From Mustelus asterias (taxonomy: Eukaryota), in NCBI RefSeq assembly GCF_964213995.1, contig NC_135830.1:11842001-11906000 (forward strand): 64,000 bases of DNA. The letters are read 5' to 3'. The notes below the pieces were generated by a model that was not told the DNA's origin, searched no databases, and saw only the letters and a list, made by a program, of their open reading frames with translations. This document shows, piece after piece, positions 5,408 through 49,746 of this stretch. The first letter of the stretch is position 1. Each line of letters starts with the position of its first letter. Both the position numbers and the translations under genes were made by a program.

Positions 5408-6898
5408 TTACAAATAGTGTGACATAAACCCAATATCCCGGTTGAGGCCGTCCTTGTGTGTGCGGAACTTGGCTATCAGTTTCTGCTCAGCGACTCTGCG
5501 CTGTCGTGTGTCGCGAAGGCCGCCTTGGAGAACGCTTACCCGAATATCAGAGGCCGAATGCCCGTGACCGCTGAAGTGCTCCCCAACAGGAAGAGAACAG
5601 TCTTGCCTGGTGATTGTCGAGCGGTGTTCATTCATCCGTTGTCGCAGCGTCTGCATAGTTTCCCCAATGTACCATGCCTCGGGACATCCTTTCTTGCAGC
5701 GTATCAGGTAGACAACGTTGGCCGAGTTGCAAGAGTATGTACCGTGTACCTGGTGGATGGTGTTCTCACGTGAGATGATGGCATCTGTGTCGATGATCCG
5801 GCACGTCTTGCAGAGGTTGCTGTGGCAGGGTTGTGTGGTGTCTTGGTCCCTGTTCTCCTGAAGGCTGGGTTGTTTGCTGCGGACAATGGTCTGTTTGAGG
5901 TTGTGCGGTTGTTTGAAGGCAAGAAGTGGGGGTGTGGGGATGGCCTTGGCGAGATGTTCGTCTTCATCAATGACATGTTGAAGGCTCCGGAGGAGATGCC
6001 GTAGCTTCTCCGCTCCGGGGAAGTACTGGACAACGAAGGGTACTCTGTCCACTGTGTCCCGTGTTTGTCTTCTGAGGAGGTCGGTGCGGTTTTTCGCTGT
6101 GGCGCGTTGGAACTGTTGATCAATGAGTCTAGCGCCATATCCTGTTCTTATGAGGGCATCTTTCAGCGTCTGGAGGTGTCTGTTGCGATCCTCCTCATCC
6201 GAGCAGATCCTGTGTATACGGAGGGCTTGTCCGTAGGGGATGGCTTCTTTAACGTGTTTAGGGTGGAAGCTGGAGAAGTGGAGCATCGTGAGGTTATCCG
6301 TGGGCTTGCGGTACAGTGAGGTGCTGAGGTGACCGTCCTTAATGGAGATGCGCGTGTCCAAGAATGCAACCGATTCCGGAGAGTAGTCTATGGTGAGCCT
6401 GATGGTGGGATGGAACTTGTTGATGTCATCATAGAGTTGTTTCAGTGATTGTTCACCATGAGTCCAAAGGAAGAAAATGTCATCGATGTATCTAGTGTAT
6501 AGCATCGGTTGAAGGTCCCGTGCGGTGAAGAAGTCTTGTTCGAACCTGTGCATGAAGATGTTGGCATATTGAGGTGCAAATTTGGTCCCCATGGCTGTTC
6601 CGTGTGTCTGGATGAAGAACTGGTTGTTGAAGGTGAAGATATTGTGGTCCAGGATGAAGCGGATGAGATGTAAAATTGCATCTGGAAACTGGCAGTTGTT
6701 GGCGCTGAGCACTGAGGCCGTTGCAGCAATGCCATCGTCATGGGGGATGCTGGTGTAGAGTGCTGAGACATCCATTGTGACGAGGAGCGCTCCTGGTTCA
6801 ACTGCTCCATGTGTGCCGAGTTTCTGTAGGAAGTCCGTCGTGTCGCGACAAAAGCTGGGGGTTATTTGTACAATGGGTTTCAGGATGCCCTCGACATA
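5408..6898 (-). CDS. PLE reverse transcriptase + GIY-YIG endonuclease (5'-truncated; Cys-rich linker suggests Neptune-like)
   Basis: MDVSALYTSI, GTAMG, YIDD, Cys linker CHSNLCKTC, NVVYLIRC...WYIGET, R..EH, GLN. The first ~10 aa of the track ORF come from the inverted pLTR. Confidence 0.92.
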   Translation of the reverse strand, partial: YVEGILKPIVQITPSFCRDTTDFLQKLGTHGAVEPGALLVTMDVSALYTSIPHDDGIAATASVLSANNCQFPDAILHLIRFILDHNIFTFNNQFFIQTHGTAMGTKFAPQYANIFMHRFEQDFFTARDLQPMLYTRYIDDIFFLWTHGEQSLKQLYDDINKFHPTIRLTIDYSPESVAFLDTRISIKDGHLSTSLYRKPTDNLTMLHFSSFHPKHVKEAIPYGQALRIHRICSDEEDRNRHLQTLKDALIRTGYGARLIDQQFQRATAKNRTDLLRRQTRDTVDRVPFVVQYFPGAEKLRHLLRSLQHVIDEDEHLAKAIPTPPLLAFKQPHNLKQTIVRSKQPSLQENRDQDTTQPCHSNLCKTCRIIDTDAIISRENTIHQVHGTYSCNSANVVYLIRCKKGCPEAWYIGETMQTLRQRMNEHRSTITRQDCSLPVGEHFSGHGHSASDIRVSVLQGGLRDTRQRRVAEQKLIAKFRTHKDGLNRDIGFMSHYL

Positions 6899-6920
6899 GT
6901 TCTGTTTGTGAACAGAATTC

Positions 6921-6965
6921 CCACTCACCTGACGAAGGGGCTTAGAGCCTCGAAAGCTTGTGTGG
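6921..6965 (+). ncRNA. Minimal hammerhead ribozyme motif (inverted pLTR)
   Basis: CCACTCAC-CTGACGA-AGGGGCTTAGAGCCTC-GAAAGCTT-GTGTGG. Confidence 0.7.
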
Positions 6966-8988
6966 CTTTTGCTGCCAAATAAACCTGTTGGACTTTAACC
7001 TGGTGTTGTTAAACTTCTTACTGTGGAATAACACAGGGATCAGTTCTTGGCCCGAAATTGTTCACTAATTACATTCTTGACGTGGAGGAAGGAACAGCAT
7101 GTAATGTTTCCAAAAATGTCATTGACATGAACATAGGTAGAACCGCAATCTGTGATGAGGATATTGTGATTCAGCAATGTTGAAAAGGCAGATTATTATC
7201 TACATGGAGGGACACTGCTGGGCAATGAAATAGAGAGGGATCGAGGTGTTCCAGTGCTTGAATCACAAGAGCTAGCATGTAGGTTCAACAAGTAGATAAG
7301 ATGGTAAACCACATTTTGGCCGATATTGCAAAGGGTTTCATGTTTAACTATACAGAGTTTCAGTTGCAATTGTATTCACTGTTAATGAGAAGTCGCCTGG
7401 AATTTTGCATTCAATGTTGGTCCCGTTATCTAAAAAAATGTTGAAGCCGATTCTCTCGCCTCATTGCTAAGATGAGAGGGTTGACCTATCAAGTGAGACT
7501 AAATCGTTTGAGTCTGTATACATTGGAGTTCATGAGAGTGAGGCGTGATCTCACTCCACCAGTCTCACCATATTCCTGAGCTCGAATTCCAGGGTTGCCA
7601 AATGTGATTAATATCCCAGAAAGAGATAGTTGTTTGTTTTTATATTTTAGTGGCATCAAGTGAGATCGAGGATCAGCCATTATCATACTGAATGGAAGAG
7701 TAGACTCGAAGAGACAAATGACCTCCCCCTGCTCTTTGTTTCTATTTTCACGAGATTGGCCTCTGCGAGGAGGCAGTGTTCCTACATTGAGAGGTTGAGT
7801 AAATTGTACCAGTATTCTCTGCAGTTTAACGGAATGAAAGGCGATCTCATTGAAATTTTCAGCATTCTGAATGTCTGTGATAGGATGGACGTTAAGACAG
7901 ATACAAACCTTCTCTCCCGTGTGTTCCCCTCTCCCTTTTTCTACCTGTGAGCTTTCTTAAAATCTGTAACATTTATGTCTTCTTTCAGTTCTGATGAGAT
8001 TTCAGTGACTTGAACCCTTCACTCTTTCTCCCGCGACAGATTGGGTCTGACCTACTGAGGATTCACCACATTTTCTGTTTGTGAATGGTAACGCGAGACG
8101 TCTAGTCAATTCCACTCTATCTGGTATATGATAGCGGTTTTAACTGTACAATTGTTTAAATCTTTGTTTTCAACGTGAAATGTCCTTGTTTGATTACACG
8201 GGGGAGATTAACACTTACACTCTTCCGGGATGGCGGTGACACTGTGGTAAAATCAGTGGAGCATGAATTCCCCGGGGCGGAGGAACACAGGTTCAGGTCC
8301 GACCATAGCCTGGAAATGAAACTGAAATTGAAGGTTGTATCAGTAAATAAGCAATTTTTCTAATTGTCATGAGAACTCATCTGGACCTTTGCAGAAGGAA
8401 ATCAGCCATATTTACCCAATCTGGACTAGATGAGAACCCAGACCCACAATAGCGTTATTGTTTCTTAGCGGTGCTCAGAAGCAAAATATTCAGATTAAGC
8501 CGAAATAGGAACGGCCAACAAATGCTGGCACTGACAACCAAATACATATTACATGAGTAACATTTCATCAACTGACAAATTCCCATTTTGTTTCCTTTCA
8601 TGTCGAACAGGGTGACATATTCTGGTTTCTTATTGTTTGAAAAGCTCATCCCTTTAACTATTTAAAAACGTAACGTCCAGTCAGAGAAAATTGAACCGAT
8701 GTGACCCAAAAACATGATACCCCAGTTTCTGCCAACCCCGCCACAAAATAAAAGAAATGCTGGAAACATTCAGCTGGTCAAACGGCGTCTACGGAGAGGG
8801 AAATAGTGTGAAAGACTGAGGTTGCTGATCTTTTATCTTAACTGAAAGGAATTAGAGATTTTTTGGTTTGCAAACAACTACAGAATCAAGGAAAATAAAG
8901 GGCGAAAGGAAGAAAGGACAAACGGTCCTGTGATCGGGGAGCTGGCTGGATTGATGTTCTGACAATGGGAATGATACTGAAAAACAAA

Positions 8989-12800: not shown

Positions 12801-13615
12801 GTGTCTGTGGTACAATTGGTCAGCGCGTTCGGCTGCTAATTGAAAGGCTAGTGGTTCGAGACTTGTGAATGCAAGCAGGCTTTTTCCGCTGAGGCTCGGG
12901 GAGAAAAAAACCAGAGGGCATGGGTTAAAGGTGAAAGGAGAAAAGTTTAAAGGAAATATTAAGGGGGGCTTCTTCACGCAGAGAGTGGTGGGAGTGTGGA
13001 ATGAGCTGTCGGATAAAGTGGTAAATGCGGGGTTACTTTTAACATTTAAGAAAAACTTGGACGGGTTCATGGATGAGAGGGGTGTGGAGGGATATGGTCC
13101 AAGTGCAGGTCAGTGGGACTAGGCATAAAATGGTTCGGCACAGACAAGAAGGGCCAAAAGGCCTGTTTCTGAGCTGTTATTTTCTATGGTTCTTTCTATG
13201 GTTCTGGAGCGTAGGAGGCTGAGGGGTGACCTTATAGAGGTCTATAAAATAATGAGGGGCATAGACAAGGTAGATAGTCAATATCTTTTCCCAAAGGTAG
13301 GGGAGTCTAAAACTAGAGAGCATAGGTTTAAGGGGAGAGATACAAAAGTGTCCAGAGGGGCAATTTTTTCACACAGAGGGTGGTGAGTGTCTGGAACAAG
13401 CTGCCAGAGGTAGTAGTAGAGGCGGGTACAATTTTATATTTTAAAAAGCATTTAGATAGTTACATGGGTACGATGGGTATAGAGGGATATAGACGAAATG
13501 CGGGCAATTGGGATTAGCTTAGGGGTTTTAAACAAAAAAGGGTGGCATGGACAAGTTGGGCTGAATGGCCTGTTTCCATGCTGTAAACCTCTATGACTAT
13601 GACCATCCAGGCCCG
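12801..13615 (+). pseudogene. tRNA-Asn pseudogene split by CR1 insertions (12801-12862 + 13603-13615)
   Basis: 5' part matches Asn up to GGTTCGAG (anticodon mutated to GCT); 3' CCATCCAGGCCCG resumes after the LINE tails. Confidence 0.75.
12863..13602 (+). mobile_element. Two tandem 5'-truncated CR1 3' ends
   Basis: TRGH.LK, FFTQRVV..WN.L motifs twice; tails TTCTATGG (13203) and CTATGA (13602). Confidence 0.85.
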
Positions 13616-14889: not shown

Positions 14890-14961
14890 TCCCTGGTGGT
14901 CGAGAGTCACGGATTCGTCGCTTTCACCGCCGCGGCCTGGGTTCGATTCCTGGTCAGGGAA
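14890..14961 (+). tRNA. tRNA-Glu(TTC), D-arm degenerate (likely pseudogene)
   Basis: TCCCTGGTGGTC...CGCTTTCACCG...GGGTTCGATTCCTGGTCAGGGAA, 72 nt; A-box altered. Confidence 0.8.
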
Positions 14962-15542: not shown

Positions 15543-15830
15543 AGGGCGGCCCGGTGGCACTGTGGTTAGCACTGATACCTCACAGCGCCAAGGACTCAGG
15601 TTAAAAATTTCGGGTCACTAGCTGTACGGAGTTTGCATGTTCTCACCGTGTCTGTGAGGATTTCTTCTGGGGGCTCTTGTTTCCTTTCCAAAGATGTGCG
15701 TGTTAAGTTGATTGACCATGCTAAATTGACCCTAATGTCAGCGGAATTAGTAGGGTTTAAGGGAACAGGGCGTGGATGCGGAGTCGATGGGCCGAATGGC
15801 CTCCTTCTGTACTGTTCGATTCTATGACAG
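15543..15830 (+). mobile_element. tRNA-derived SINE (shark HE1-like)
   Basis: Head GGTGGCACTGTGGTTAGCACTG; core GGAGTTTGCATGTTCTC...GATGTGCG.GTTA; CR1-like tail GATGGGCCGAATGGCCT...TTCTATGA. Confidence 0.8.
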
Positions 15831-15950: not shown

Positions 15951-18900
15951 CTTGAGCAGGCTGGCAGGTAGGATAGCTGAGGAACAGTGGAGGATTTTTA
16001 AGGAGATCCTTTTCAGTTCTCAGCAAAAATATATTCCAGCAAAAAACAAGGATTGTAAGAAAAGGGAGAACCAGCCGTGGATAACGAAGGAAATAAAGGA
16101 GAGTATTAAAATAAAAACAGCTGCGTACAGAGTGGCCAAAAATAGTGGAGAAACAAGTGATTGGGAAAAATTTAAGAAACAACAAAGAGAGACTAAGAAA
16201 GTGATAAAGAAAGGAAGGATAGACTATGAAGCTAGGCTAGCAATTAATATAAAAAATGATAGTAAAAGTTTTTATAAATATATAAAAAGGAATAGAGTGG
16301 CTAGAGTGAATGTTGGACCCTTGGAGGACGAGAGGGGGGAGTTAATAGTGGGAAATTAGGATATGGCTGAGTCTTTAAATACGTTTTTTGTGTCGGTCTT
16401 CACGGTGGAGGACACAAATAGTTTGCCAAATATTAACGATAGAGGGTTGGCAGCAGGAGAAATACTTAATACGATTAATGTTACCAGAGAGGCAGTGCTC
16501 GGTAGACTAATGGGACTGAAGGTGGACAAGTCCCCGGGTCCGGATGGAATGCATCCCAGGGTATTGAAAGAAATGTCAGAGGTAATAGTGGATGCGTTAG
16601 TGATTATTTATCAAAACTCGTTGCATTCTGGGGTAGTGCCGGTTGATTGGAAAACGGCTAATGTTACGCCGCTGTTTAAAAAAGGAAGGAGACAAAAGGC
16701 AGGTAACTATAGGCCGGTCAGCTTAACGTCTGTAGTAGGGAAAATGCTGGAATCCATTATTAAAGAGGAGATAGCAGGGCATCTGGATAGAAATGGTTCG
16801 ATCAATCAGACGCAGCATGGATTCATGAGGGGAAAGTCGTGCTTGACGAACATGTTGGATTTTTATGAAGATGTGACTAGGGCGGTTGATGGAGGAGAAC
16901 CGGTGGATGCGGTGTTTTTGGATTTCCAAAAGGCGTTTGATAAGGTACCCCATAAAAGGCTGCTGAAGAAGATTAGGGCACATGGAGTTGGGGGTAGTGT
17001 GTTAAAGTGGATTGGGGACTGGCTATCCGACAGGAAGCAAAGAGTCGGAATAAATGGGTGTTTTTCCGGTTGGAGGAAGGTAACTAGTGGCGTGCCGCAG
17101 GGATCGGTACTTGGGCCGCAACTGTTTACCATTTATATAGATGATCTGGAGGAGGGGACGGAGTGTAGGGTAACGAAGTTTGCAGACGACACAAAGATAA
17201 GTGGAAAAGTGAATCGTGTGGAGGACGGAGAAGATCTGCAGAGAGATTTGGACAGGCTGAGTGAGTGGGCGAGGATATGGCAAATGGAGTATAACGTTGA
17301 GAAATGCGAGGTTATACACTTTGGAGGAAATAATAACAAATGGGATTACTATCTCAATGGAAACAAATTAAAACATGCTACCGTGCAAAGGGACCTGGGG
17401 GTCCTTGTGCATGAGAATAATGTAAGGAGGAGCTACACGATAAATGGAAGAACCATAAAGGGTGTAGAGACGCAGAGGGACCTGGGTGTGCAAGTCCACA
17501 GATCTTTGAAGGTGACGTCACAGGTGGAGAAGGTGGTGAAGAAGGCATATGGCATGCTTGCCTTTATAGGACGGGGCATAGAGTGTAAAAGTTGGGGTCT
17601 GATGTTGCAGATGTATAGAACGTTGGTTCGGCCGCATTTGGAATACTGCGTCCAGTTCTGGTCGCCACACTACCAGAAGGACGTGGAGGCTTTGGAGAGA
17701 GTACAGAGGAGGTTTACCAGGATGTTGCCTGGTATGGAGGGGCTTGGTTATGAGGAGAGATTGGGGAAACTGGGGTTGTTCTCCTTGGAAAGACGGAGGA
17801 TGAGGGGAGACTTAACAGAGGTGTATAAAATTATGAAAGGCATAGATAGGGTAAACGGTGGGAAGCTTTTCCCCGGGTCGGTGGTGACGTTCACGAGGCG
17901 TCATAGGTTCAAGGTGAAGGAGGGGAGGTTTAACACAAATATCAGAAGGACATATTTCACACAGAGGGTCGTGGGGGCGTGGAATGTGTTGCCGGGCAAG
18001 GTGGTGGAGGCGGACACACTGGGAACGTTTAAGACTTATCTCGACAGCTATATGAACGGAGTGGGAATGGAGGGATACAAAAGAGTGGTCTAGTTTGAAC
18101 CAGGGAGCGGCGCGGGCTAATTGTTCCTTGTTTCTCGTGGAAGTGGAAATGACTAGGGTTGGGAAGCATTTTCCGATCAGGGCCATTGTGATCTCCTGGA
18201 CTCGTTTCGATCGCCTCAGGGGGTCGGAGAGGAATTTCCCAGATTTTTTTTTCCCCATATTGGCCCTGGGGTTTTTCACTCTGGGTTTTCGCCTCTCCCT
18301 GGAGATCACATGGTCTGGAATGGGGGGGTGGGGGTGAGTTAATAGGTTGTAATGAACAAAGCATCGTAGCTGTGGGGGACAGCTCGGTGGATAGGATATT
18401 GGTATGTAGATAGGCTGGAAAATTGGGCGGGGATCCTGGATTCAGGATTCAATCCTGGACCGGGGAGCGGCGCGGGCTTGGAGGGCCGAAGGGCCTGTTC
18501 CTGTGCTGTATTGTTCTTTAAAAAGACGCAAAAGCCCAGTCTGCAGGTACAACAGGTGATCAAGAAGGCAAATGGGATGTTGGCCTATATTGCGAGGGGG
18601 ATAGAATATAAAAGCAGGGATGTCTTGATGCACCTGTACAGGGCATTGGTGAGGCCGCAGCTGGAATACTGTGTGCAGTATTGGTCCCCTTATATGAGGA
18701 AGGATATATTGGCATTGGAGGGAGTGCAGAGAAGGTTCACCAGGTTGATACCGGAGATGAGGGGCTTGGATTATGAGGAGAGGCTGAGGAGATTGGGTTT
18801 GTACTCGTTGGAGTTTAGAAGGATGAGGGGGGATCTTATGGAGACTTATAAGATAATGCGGGGGCTGGATAGGGTGGAGGCGGAGAGATTCTTTCCACTT

Positions 18901-19218
18901 AGTAAGGAAGTTAAAACTAGAGGACACAGCCTCAAAATAAAGGGGGGTCGGTTTAAGACAGAGTTGAGGAGGAACTTCTTCTCCCAGAGGGTGGTGAATC
19001 TCTGGAATTCTCTGCCCACTGAGGTGGTGGAGGCTACCTCGCTGAATATGTTTAAAGCGCGGATGGATGGATTCCTGATCGGTAAGGGAATTAAGGGTTA
19101 TGGGGATCAGGCGGGTAAGTGGTACTGATCCACGTCAGATCAGCCATGATCTTATTGAATGGCGGGGCAGGCTCGAGGGGCTAGATGGCCTACTCCTGCT
19201 CCTATTTCTTATGTTCTT
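15951..19218 (+). mobile_element. 5'-truncated CR1 LINE 'A' (15951-17415 + 18524-19218)
   Basis: RT motifs (KSPGPDG, GVPQGSVLGP, KFADDTK); VLVHE|TQKPSLQVQQVIKKANG rejoins across the insertion; tail CTTATGTTCTT. Confidence 0.93.
17416..18523 (+). mobile_element. 5'-truncated CR1 LINE 'B' nested in CR1 'A', with an extended 3'UTR
   Basis: Second QRDLGV motif and its own C-terminus (stop 18093); tail GGAGGGCCGAAGGGCCTGTTCCTGTGCTGTATTGTTCTTT; same subfamily as 47642-48011 and 49388-49746. Confidence 0.9.
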
Positions 19219-22592: not shown

Positions 22593-22664
22593 GGTTCCGT
22601 GGTGTAATGGTGAGCGCTCTGGACTCTAAATCCAGCGACCTGAGTTTTAATCTCGGCGCCACCT
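22593..22664 (+). tRNA. tRNA-Gln body with a CTA (amber-reading) anticodon, probably a pseudogene
   Basis: GGTTCCGTGGTGTAATGGTGAGCGCTCTGGACT-CTA-AATCCAG...; T-loop TTTTAAT and two acceptor-stem mismatches. Confidence 0.8.
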
Positions 22665-23298: not shown

Positions 23299-23371
23299 GC
23301 CTGGCTAGCTCAGTCGGTAGAGCATGAGACTCTTAATCTCAGGGCCATGGGTTTGAGCCCCACGTTGGGCG
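23299..23371 (+). tRNA. tRNA-Lys(CTT), probably pseudogenised
   Basis: 73 nt; T-loop TTTGA (C56T) damages the B box; other transition changes. Confidence 0.85.
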
Positions 23372-47225: not shown

Positions 47226-47641
47226 CTGCAGGGGTTGGATTCTGCTATCATTGCTGCTGTTCAGTATTGATAGTCTGACAATAATTTATTTCTACTGATG
47301 TTAACAAAGCCTATAACTTGCTGGGATTTAATATTCTGGAAGTGTCACTGATTTTCGGTGCTGCAATGTCGCTTTTTAAAAGCAACACCTGTGATCTCCT
47401 CCCTTAACTGAAGATCTCGCAACAGAAATCTGCTTAGAATAAAATTATGAACTTTTGCTTCAATTCCAATTTGATCTTTGGAGCAATTTAGTATCTGAAA
47501 GATTCATCTGCAGGGGACAAAGTATTGATTTTCAATGCTCTTATTGAGATTTTCTCGAGTGCTACTCTTTGATTTTTAAGGACTATGTTTTGATTTCCAG
47601 AGAATCTTTTTCCATTCTCACCAATTCCTTTAGTAGTAGTA

Positions 47642-48011
47642 ATAGAGGTGTATAAAATTATGAAAGGCATAGAAAGGGCGAACGGTGGGAAGCTTTTTCC
47701 CAGATCGGTGGTGACGTTCACGAGGGGTCATAGGTTCAAGGTGAGGGGGGGCGGGGGGCGGGGGGGGGGGAGGTTTAACACGGATATCAGAAGGACGTAT
47801 TTCACACAGACGGTGGTAGGGGCCTGGAATGCGCTGCCGGGCAAGCTGGTGGAGGCGGACACACTGGGAACGTTTAATATTTATCTAGATAGCCACATGA
47901 ACGGAGTGGGAATGGAGGGATACAAAAGAATGGTCTAGTTTGGACTAGGGAGCGGGCTTGGAGGGCCGAAGGGCGCGTTTCTGTGCTGTATTGTCCTTTG
48001 TTCTTTGTTCT
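47642..48011 (+). mobile_element. CR1 'B'-subfamily 3' fragment (short 3'UTR)
   Basis: YKIMKGI...GMEGYKRMV; TTCTTTG tail. Confidence 0.85.
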
Positions 48012-49387: not shown

Positions 49388-49746
49388 GAGAACAAAGAAC
49401 AAAGAATAAAGAACAATACAGCACAGGAACAGGCCCTTCGGCCCTCCAAGCCCGTGCCGCTCCCTGGTCCAAACTAGACCATTCTTTTGTATCCCTCCAT
49501 TCTCACTTCGTTCATATGGCTATCTAGATAAGTCTTCAACGTTCCCAGTGTGTCCGCCTCCACCACCTTGCCTGGCAGCGCATTCCAGGCCCCCACCACC
49601 CTCTGTGTAAAATATGTCCTTCTGATATCTGTGTTAAACCTACCCCCCTTCACCTTGAACCTATGACCCCTCGTGAACGTCACCACCGACCTGGGGAAAA
49701 GCTTCCCACCGTTCACCCTATCTATGCCTTTCATAATTTTATACAC
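49388..49746 (-). mobile_element. CR1 'B'-subfamily 3' fragment (short 3'UTR)
   Basis: Same C-terminus and tail on the minus strand. Confidence 0.85.

Follow-up and report, generated by a model that had tools for sequence, protein, structure and literature searches.

Can a LINE retrotransposon that encodes no poly(A) carry an RNA structure that clamps poly(A)? The question is raised by a hairpin in the 64,000-nt stretch of DNA analysed here (the window), which an initial annotation described as a double-ENE-like, poly(A) triple-helix fold in the 3'UTR of a shark CR1 LINE. ENEs have been reported from viruses, from MALAT1/NEAT1, and from transposons of plants, fungi and slime mould as well as a stickleback retrovirus (PMC7583470), and one ENE was shown in 2025 to raise retrotransposition (PMC12501189). 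The annotation was aware of no ENE in a vertebrate LINE, and no LINE ENE was found in the accessible sections of the ENE, CR1 and shark literature searched (including PMC12707130, PMC8704770, PMC10078130 and bioRxiv 443036), a body of work that excludes the lists in Tycowski et al. 2016 and both papers of Torabi et al. 2021, which could contain one. Sequence strings sought in papers and in one CR1 supplement gave nothing relevant.

The hairpin belongs to a young, 5'-truncated LINE (17417–18519, + strand) that comprises the C-terminal 224 aa of ORF2, a stop codon at 18091–18093 and a long 3'UTR, and is nested in an older CR1. The ORF2 of the older element is recognisable before the insertion (16360–17416, + strand) from its RT domain (Pfam RVT_1, E 5e-34) and from the frames flanking the junction, and picks up again from about 18526 to 19128. 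We take the inserted element to be a CR1 on the strength of its anatomy and its bird, turtle and shark homologues, rather than of a repeat-library search; the CR1 features present are ORF2 homology, 5' truncation, a terminal hairpin with microsatellite, and no poly(A). Its elasmobranch character, also part of the annotation, is borne out by the best 120 of 1446 homologues, among which the closest named ones are from Stegostoma (68% identity) and Hypanus (65%), with skates and rays at 52–59% and birds and turtles at 35–54% identity to the inserted ORF2; two near entries labelled bacterial in the same set (P0006 and P0114) are probably contamination. The ESM Atlas held only unnamed chordate clusters, and ORF2-based locus searches returned no match, one weak match (35%) and no match.

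The long 3'UTR is due to an extra segment with sharp boundaries. Just 3' of the ORF2 stop lies the first copy of a 23-nt direct repeat (18096–18118, + strand), a 91% match to the second copy at 18456–18478, and it is followed by a 360-nt segment (18119–18478, + strand) that includes this second copy and was delimited by alignment with sister copies. Two of these in the window (49407–49746, − strand, and 47640–47999, + strand) lack exactly 18119–18478, and their ORF ends are 85–93% identical to the focal copy. The ordinary CR1 3' terminus (18479–18519, + strand), namely a GAAG-loop hairpin (18483–18496) with a TTGTTCT-type repeat and no encoded poly(A), is also found in the sister copies and in further CR1 families of the window. 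A tblastn search with the ORF2 end gave 12 matches in the window, of which only the focal copy carries the long UTR; one of the other 11 is clipped by the window end, one is an opposite-strand fragment, and the remaining ones continue for no more than about 70 nt before terminating in a small hairpin and microsatellite. Since nearly all other ORF2 ends are short, the short UTR is the usual state of the family and the long form was most likely gained; alternatively, the short copies of this subfamily could derive from deletion between the repeats. The element had been attributed to the 3'UTR of a CR1 lineage; it does lie in a CR1 3'UTR, in sense orientation, but only in a long-UTR sub-lineage. 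Roughly 135 nt separate the fold from the ORF and 220 nt separate it from the CR1 3' end, a placement close to the 3' terminus of a mobile RNA without introns that is also that of transposon ENEs (PMC13541005, PMC7583470, PMC10078130).

Several other features of the segment and the window are recorded here as separate observations. The segment start (18119–18138) resembles the CR1 terminal repeat, which hints at flanking-DNA capture between two CR1 3' ends, and a second small stable hairpin (18437–18460; z about −2.5 over it) lies just 5' of the second repeat. At the 3' junction of the inserted CR1 (18520–18525), four to five A that are lacking in the sister copies fall outside the host frame, and an AG may be a 2-nt target duplication. 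Elsewhere, tRNA-like Rfam matches at the gathering threshold (2527–2599, 14890–14961, 22593–22664 and 23299–23371) are probably heads of tRNA-derived SINEs; about 15545–15830 there is a SINE-like stretch with a CR1-type tail; tandem CR1 3' ends occupy 12868–13500, a 5'-truncated copy standing directly behind another; and a 528-aa open frame (5408–6994, − strand), unrelated to the CR1 ORF2 C-terminus, is possibly another retroelement. A scan for bacterial promoters and terminators was empty and is irrelevant here.

The predicted fold agrees closely with the one annotated. All four nested helices (18187–18196/18301–18310, 18226–18232/18292–18298, 18238–18243/18280–18285 and 18253–18257/18267–18271) were recovered where they had been claimed, as were the two U-rich internal loops, AAUUU (18233–18237) opposite UUUUCG (18286–18291) and U9 (18244–18252) opposite U5CAC (18272–18279). 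Pair probabilities also support the side hairpin (18208–18226, + strand) and the resulting three-way junction, with G18226 common to the side hairpin and the lower stem. The whole predicted stem extends over 18167–18330 (+ strand), the basal helix being longer than first noted and reaching 18167–18185/18311–18330. Above the junction, the core (18226–18298, + strand) consists of a 7-bp lower stem, the AA-U3 × U4-CG loop, a 6-bp central stem, the U9 × U5-CAC loop, a 5-bp top stem and a 9-nt apical loop. For 18170–18320 the minimum free energy is −64.6 kcal/mol (z −4.35), and 0 of 200 shuffles were equally stable. Core pair probabilities in the local fold are 0.85–1.0, the U tracts are unpaired with a probability of at least 0.9 in both the local and the UTR-only context, and U makes up 21 of the 28 internal-loop bases (binomial P 6e-7). 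The + strand folds at −72.7 kcal/mol and the − strand at −56.4 kcal/mol; a minus-strand reading was dropped on account of this worse energy and the CR1 orientation, the z scores of both strands being similar (−3.08 and −3.39). Co-folding with oligo(A) made no difference, as expected, since ViennaRNA has no triplex model.

How far does this anatomy match that of known ENEs? U tracts on both strands of an internal loop with short flanking helices, as in single ENEs, are present, and so are two U-rich loops separated by a short duplex. The PAN ENE and TWIFB1 dENE sequences were taken from Table S1 of PMC10855403 and compared by eye. In both, the 5' strand has a U-run and then C, and the 3' strand has G, then a U-run, then extra bases (PMC10855403); by this comparison, both loops of the CR1 fold have the same polarity. 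The upper loop resembles the KSHV PAN ENE in its five opposed U pairs, in the CC/GG on top and in a short 3'-strand bulge below; it differs from it in that the stem beneath begins with A-U, G-C and A-U instead of G-C pairs, in the presence of a second loop underneath, and in having no fixed poly(A) site nearby. The rice TWIFB1 dENE (hAT transposase mRNA; PDB 7JNH) likewise has two stacked U × U loops with C-G top closures, extra bases after the 3' U-run, a short top stem and loop, and a location in the 3'UTR of an intronless mobile RNA. In contrast to TWIFB1, the central stem here is 6 bp (plus U4 × CAC) rather than 10 bp, the lower loop is U3 × U4 with AA × CG rather than U4 × U5 with a 3-nt bulge, the lower stem is uninterrupted and capped by a three-way junction, there is a competing helix, and the host is a LINE.

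The lower loop, with room for about three triples, is a marginal one. Plant dENEs have a 3–4-nt bulge and an interrupted stem at this point (PMC7583470), whereas the CR1 fold has a 2 × 2 AA/CG element followed by the uninterrupted 7-bp stem. A conserved adenosine triad and a 3'-end pocket motif, described for dENEs in a review (PMC13541005), are not evident either, the core loops having two unpaired A only, both on the 5' strand. Flanking G-C pairs are a general feature of ENE loops (PMC7583470, PMC12501189, PMC12707130) and are essential in the Evade ENE (PMC12501189); here C-G runs lie on top of both loops, A-U comes first beneath the upper loop, and the G-C pairs beneath the lower loop sit two bases from its U tracts. 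The U3 × U4 lower loop with its missing 3-nt 3'-strand bulge and uninterrupted stem, and the A-U below the upper loop, all count against a clamp. The annotated double-ENE likeness stands as regards two opposed U loops, which far exceed chance, and fails as regards the lower bulge of TWIFB1; with this feature absent, we do not file the element as a TWIFB1-type dENE, although it may work like one. A further parallel is offered by the ENE of Arabidopsis Evade (Copia93), in which four U tracts likewise lie in an unusually long post-ORF spacer of a successful retrotransposon; when this ENE is deleted, the half-life of the RNA and the copy number both fall (PMC12501189). Evade differs in being an LTR element with a measured poly(A) tail, whereas the present element is a non-LTR CR1 that ends in a microsatellite and is known from sequence.

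Public sequencing runs indicate that the segment occurs in several organisms. It is partly present in 20 of the 24 runs listed, and 14 of the 24, from seven coded organisms and eight studies, hold at least half of 34 sampled words, the best holder perhaps being the source of the window itself; depth and variants were examined in four of the 24 (X1, X13, X15 and X16). The depth of the hairpin relative to the ORF2 end is 0.46 in X1, 0.64 in X13 and 0.83 in X16, ratios that come from different organisms and have no bearing on RNA enrichment. A depth of about 1e6 in X1, against 18–24 on apparently unique pieces, would correspond to the order of 1e4 copies, although contig depths added together cannot be read as a copy number. 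The RNA run X15 covers the site with a single 134-nt piece flanked by adapter; X16, with a small word share of 0.18, is RNA by guess only. Contigs of X13 and X16 continue from the segment into the CR1 terminus, a joint that skips the segment occurs in X1 and X13, and X1, X13 and X16 have depth across the segment, so that the two forms, long and short, are found together in at least two organisms. The segment is a mark of a high-copy CR1 sub-lineage and not of CR1 in general. Against a clamp, short-UTR relatives have spread too, and both sister copies in the window are without the segment.

Variation within the segment is compatible with constraint on the hairpin, the depletion being not significant. 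At a 4% threshold there are six substitution sites in 337 segment-specific bases. None falls in the 73-nt core, an unremarkable outcome (P 0.23), and none of the six is compensatory, both of which count against a clamp; 18180–18316 contains a single site, 18216 in the loop of the side hairpin (depletion P 0.22). The variants that do occur leave the fold intact: 18174 changes a C-G pair to U.G, 18179 and 18216 are unpaired, and the core indels are one-base losses from U9 (7% of X1 depth) and U5 (9% of X1 depth), the latter tract also being U4 in the sole X13 contig that covers the core, a shortening that counts against a clamp. Substitutions are few, and the family is too young in these data to inform on covariation. 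Larger changes lie outside the hairpin. An extra stretch near 18135–18138, absent from the focal copy, is present in X13 and X16, the main X16 form has lost 74 nt (18333–18406), and among the rows listed all large indels of X13 and X16 fall outside 18140–18321; a rare X1 joint, among the joint rows listed, deletes 18300–18477.

These data bear on the idea that one source copy of CR1 took up a genuine ENE from another RNA, such as an LTR element, a virus or a lncRNA, and that this ENE has since been a neutral hitchhiker. The discrete segment between direct repeats, its absence from the other 11 ORF2-end matches (one of them clipped by the window), the abundance of short forms, the lack of CR1-encoded poly(A) and the non-significant constraint on the core would all fit such an origin. 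Set against this are the failure of metagenome, viral and Rfam searches to find a donor RNA for the segment, and the sparing of the hairpin by the large X13 and X16 indels and by the best-supported loose ends of X1, which among the rows listed lie at the segment edges with none inside. We regard neutral hitchhiking as unlikely, if still worth serious consideration.

A more direct complication is that the hairpin can fold in another way. The annotation had noted that the apical loop could pair with an upstream strand as a pseudoknot; the complementarity is real and indeed grows, but the strand also supports a mutually exclusive fold. The proposed pseudoknot forms the central 6–7 bp of a 12-bp helix (18178–18190/18256–18268, within 18178–18268, + strand) with one U.U mismatch and −21.8 kcal/mol. 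When the 9-nt apical loop was randomised, 0–0.4% of 5,000 trials per mode gave such a match (P 0.002–0.004, post hoc). The full helix takes bases from the top and basal stems and therefore excludes the ENE fold. In the energy model, the ENE state is ahead by 13 kcal/mol in 18170–18320 and by 1.4 kcal/mol in the UTR alone, behind by 2.8 kcal/mol when folding starts from 18040, and tied from 17980; the probability of its pairs drops to 0.48 once the ORF2 end is included, and is 0.12–0.60 under span limits. Long-range fold predictions of this kind are unreliable, and triplex energy is outside the energy model. As the 3' end grows, the prediction makes the alternative the dominant fold between 18283 and 18313, then the ENE state between 18319 and 18331, and returns to the alternative at 18337–18343. 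A G7-T-G5 run after the basal stem (18322–18334) pairs with 18289–18301 in the alternative fold and survives, altered, in the X16 deletion variant. Pseudoknot and triplex, too, are probably mutually exclusive, since an arm of some 30 bp stiffened by poly(A), given A-form geometry, would be unable to bring its tip to the 12-bp basal stem. The competing fold, predicted within about 3 kcal/mol in longer contexts and sometimes favoured, argues against a clamp; it weakens the ENE reading in its simple form, and the idea of a switch derives from it.

One could go further and regard the hairpin as a structured switch or protein platform, recognised by ORF2p or U-rich binding proteins, with the U loops as hinges and a ligand other than poly(A). 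The non-random 12-bp complementarity and the near-isoenergetic folds in context would suit such a role, as would the three-way junction and long basal stem, which are foreign to described ENEs, and stringent LINEs do bind ORF2p through 3'UTR structures (PMC4176376). Hinges, however, need neither U on both strands of both loops nor the polarity of ENEs, and the ORF2p-type terminal hairpin is a separate structure that is sufficient in short copies. A non-poly(A) ligand seems improbable to us.

Could the two loops be accidental? They were sought with a descriptor (a U-run of at least 3, a stem of at least 4 Watson–Crick pairs opening with G-C, an opposed U-run, and a second stem of at least 4), which matched only the two loops at 18226–18298 on both strands of the 64 kb. 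The nested double form was found in 0 of 60 window shuffles, in none of a further 400 dinucleotide and 300 5-mer shuffles of the window, and in none of 4 × 20,000 local shuffles of the segment or core; these rates are optimistic, since the descriptor was composed after the site had been seen. Single-loop matches occur 1.5–2 times per shuffled window, so that one loop alone is weak evidence. An origin by fold-back duplication and homopolymer slippage in G/U-rich sequence could draw on the G/U-rich segment, its varying U-run lengths and the post hoc descriptor. It is nevertheless very improbable: no double match arose in the 700 dinucleotide and 5-mer window shuffles or the 80,000 local ones, which keep composition and short runs, and in an inverted duplication each U would face an A rather than another U.

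Searches for similar folds elsewhere gave no relative of the element. Rfam has no credible match at the fold, with sub-threshold chance matches only, and an exact 22-mer had 0 matches in metagenomes. Pattern searches gave two loci and none in viral data and, for the core pattern, 15 loci in metagenomes; in BLAST, none of these 17 loci matched the CR1. One that was inspected, 3' of an ORF resembling a bacterial ammonium transporter, was rejected because it looks like a terminator. Five loci (L005–L007, L011 and L016) have a U-run-flanked hairpin after a transporter-like ORF that is superficially single-ENE-like and is probably a bacterial terminator.

Any clamp would need a third strand, and the element does not encode one. 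Scanning it revealed no A-run longer than 4 and neither AAUAAA nor AUUAAA; there is a weak AAUGAA at 18351, but part of it is a position found to be variable in 47% of X1 depth. The absence of an encoded poly(A) or canonical signal is a further point against a clamp, and it means that a tail would have to come from read-through polyadenylation. Within the CR1 group, only Zenon has a poly(A) tail according to a 2026 survey (PMC13343379). Stringent LINEs are recognised instead via a terminal stem-loop and a short repeat (PMC4176376, PMC5135761, PMC3747384), and the hairpin with short repeat at 18479–18519 is like the 3' stem-loops of UnaL2, ZfL2 and the shark HER1/HE1 pair. The ENE-like fold is unlike these in being separate, much larger, about 190 nt upstream and absent from short-UTR copies. 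As the terminal hairpin and repeat are kept separately, priming need not be prevented if poly(A) is buried. The MALAT1/MEN-beta triple helix, too, has a vertebrate U-rich internal loop. A blunt triplex of the MALAT1 kind, using an A-rich tract encoded in the genome and defining a processed 3' end, would explain such loops in a LINE without poly(A) and could point to the five A at the 3' junction of this copy, yet it is extremely improbable, given a longest internal A-run of 4, U tracts without C/G interruption, sister copies without the junction A-run, and neither a tRNA-like nor a MALAT1 match in Rfam over 17900–18700.

On balance, we consider it reasonably probable that the hairpin stabilises read-through transcripts by clamping their poly(A), perhaps under the control of a conformational switch. 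According to this model, Pol II would pass the TTGTTCT end, and polyadenylation would take place at a downstream genomic site. The nascent RNA would first form the 18178–18190/18256–18268 helix and would refold once transcription has produced the basal 3' strand. The tail of the CR1 RNA would then pass through the loops, forming U.A-U triples, and be protected from deadenylation. The upper loop would do most of the work with up to five triples and the lower loop would contribute about three, and the spare U4 × CAC could stretch the 6-bp central stem to about 9–10 steps, near the 10-bp spacing of TWIFB1. Poly(A) binding would lock the ENE state because the rigid triplex rod would keep the apical loop away from the base. 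Longer RNA life may in turn provide more templates, and the terminal hairpin, a structure of its own, would still be recognised by ORF2p in the manner of stringent L2 LINEs.

A working ENE in CR1, if true, would extend the strategy to non-LTR elements; since CR1 elements end in a microsatellite, it would also inform how the 3' ends of CR1 RNA arise. Long- and short-UTR forms of one subfamily, side by side, are a natural comparison with and without the segment, and the 73-nt core, which can be tested at little cost, might be a compact stability element for RNA engineering. A bolder and decidedly tentative extension, which we think may be true but would not expect to be, is that a vertebrate LINE without poly(A) captured a poly(A)-gated RNA switch, passing from a closed nascent state to a double ENE that is locked by a read-through tail, and through its very high copy number seeded elasmobranch genomes with thousands of portable triple-helix elements that, where inserted in sense, would stabilise or retain host transcripts. 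CR1-group elements make up 22–34% of elasmobranch genomes (PMC13343379), and at this abundance sense insertions could affect host RNAs.
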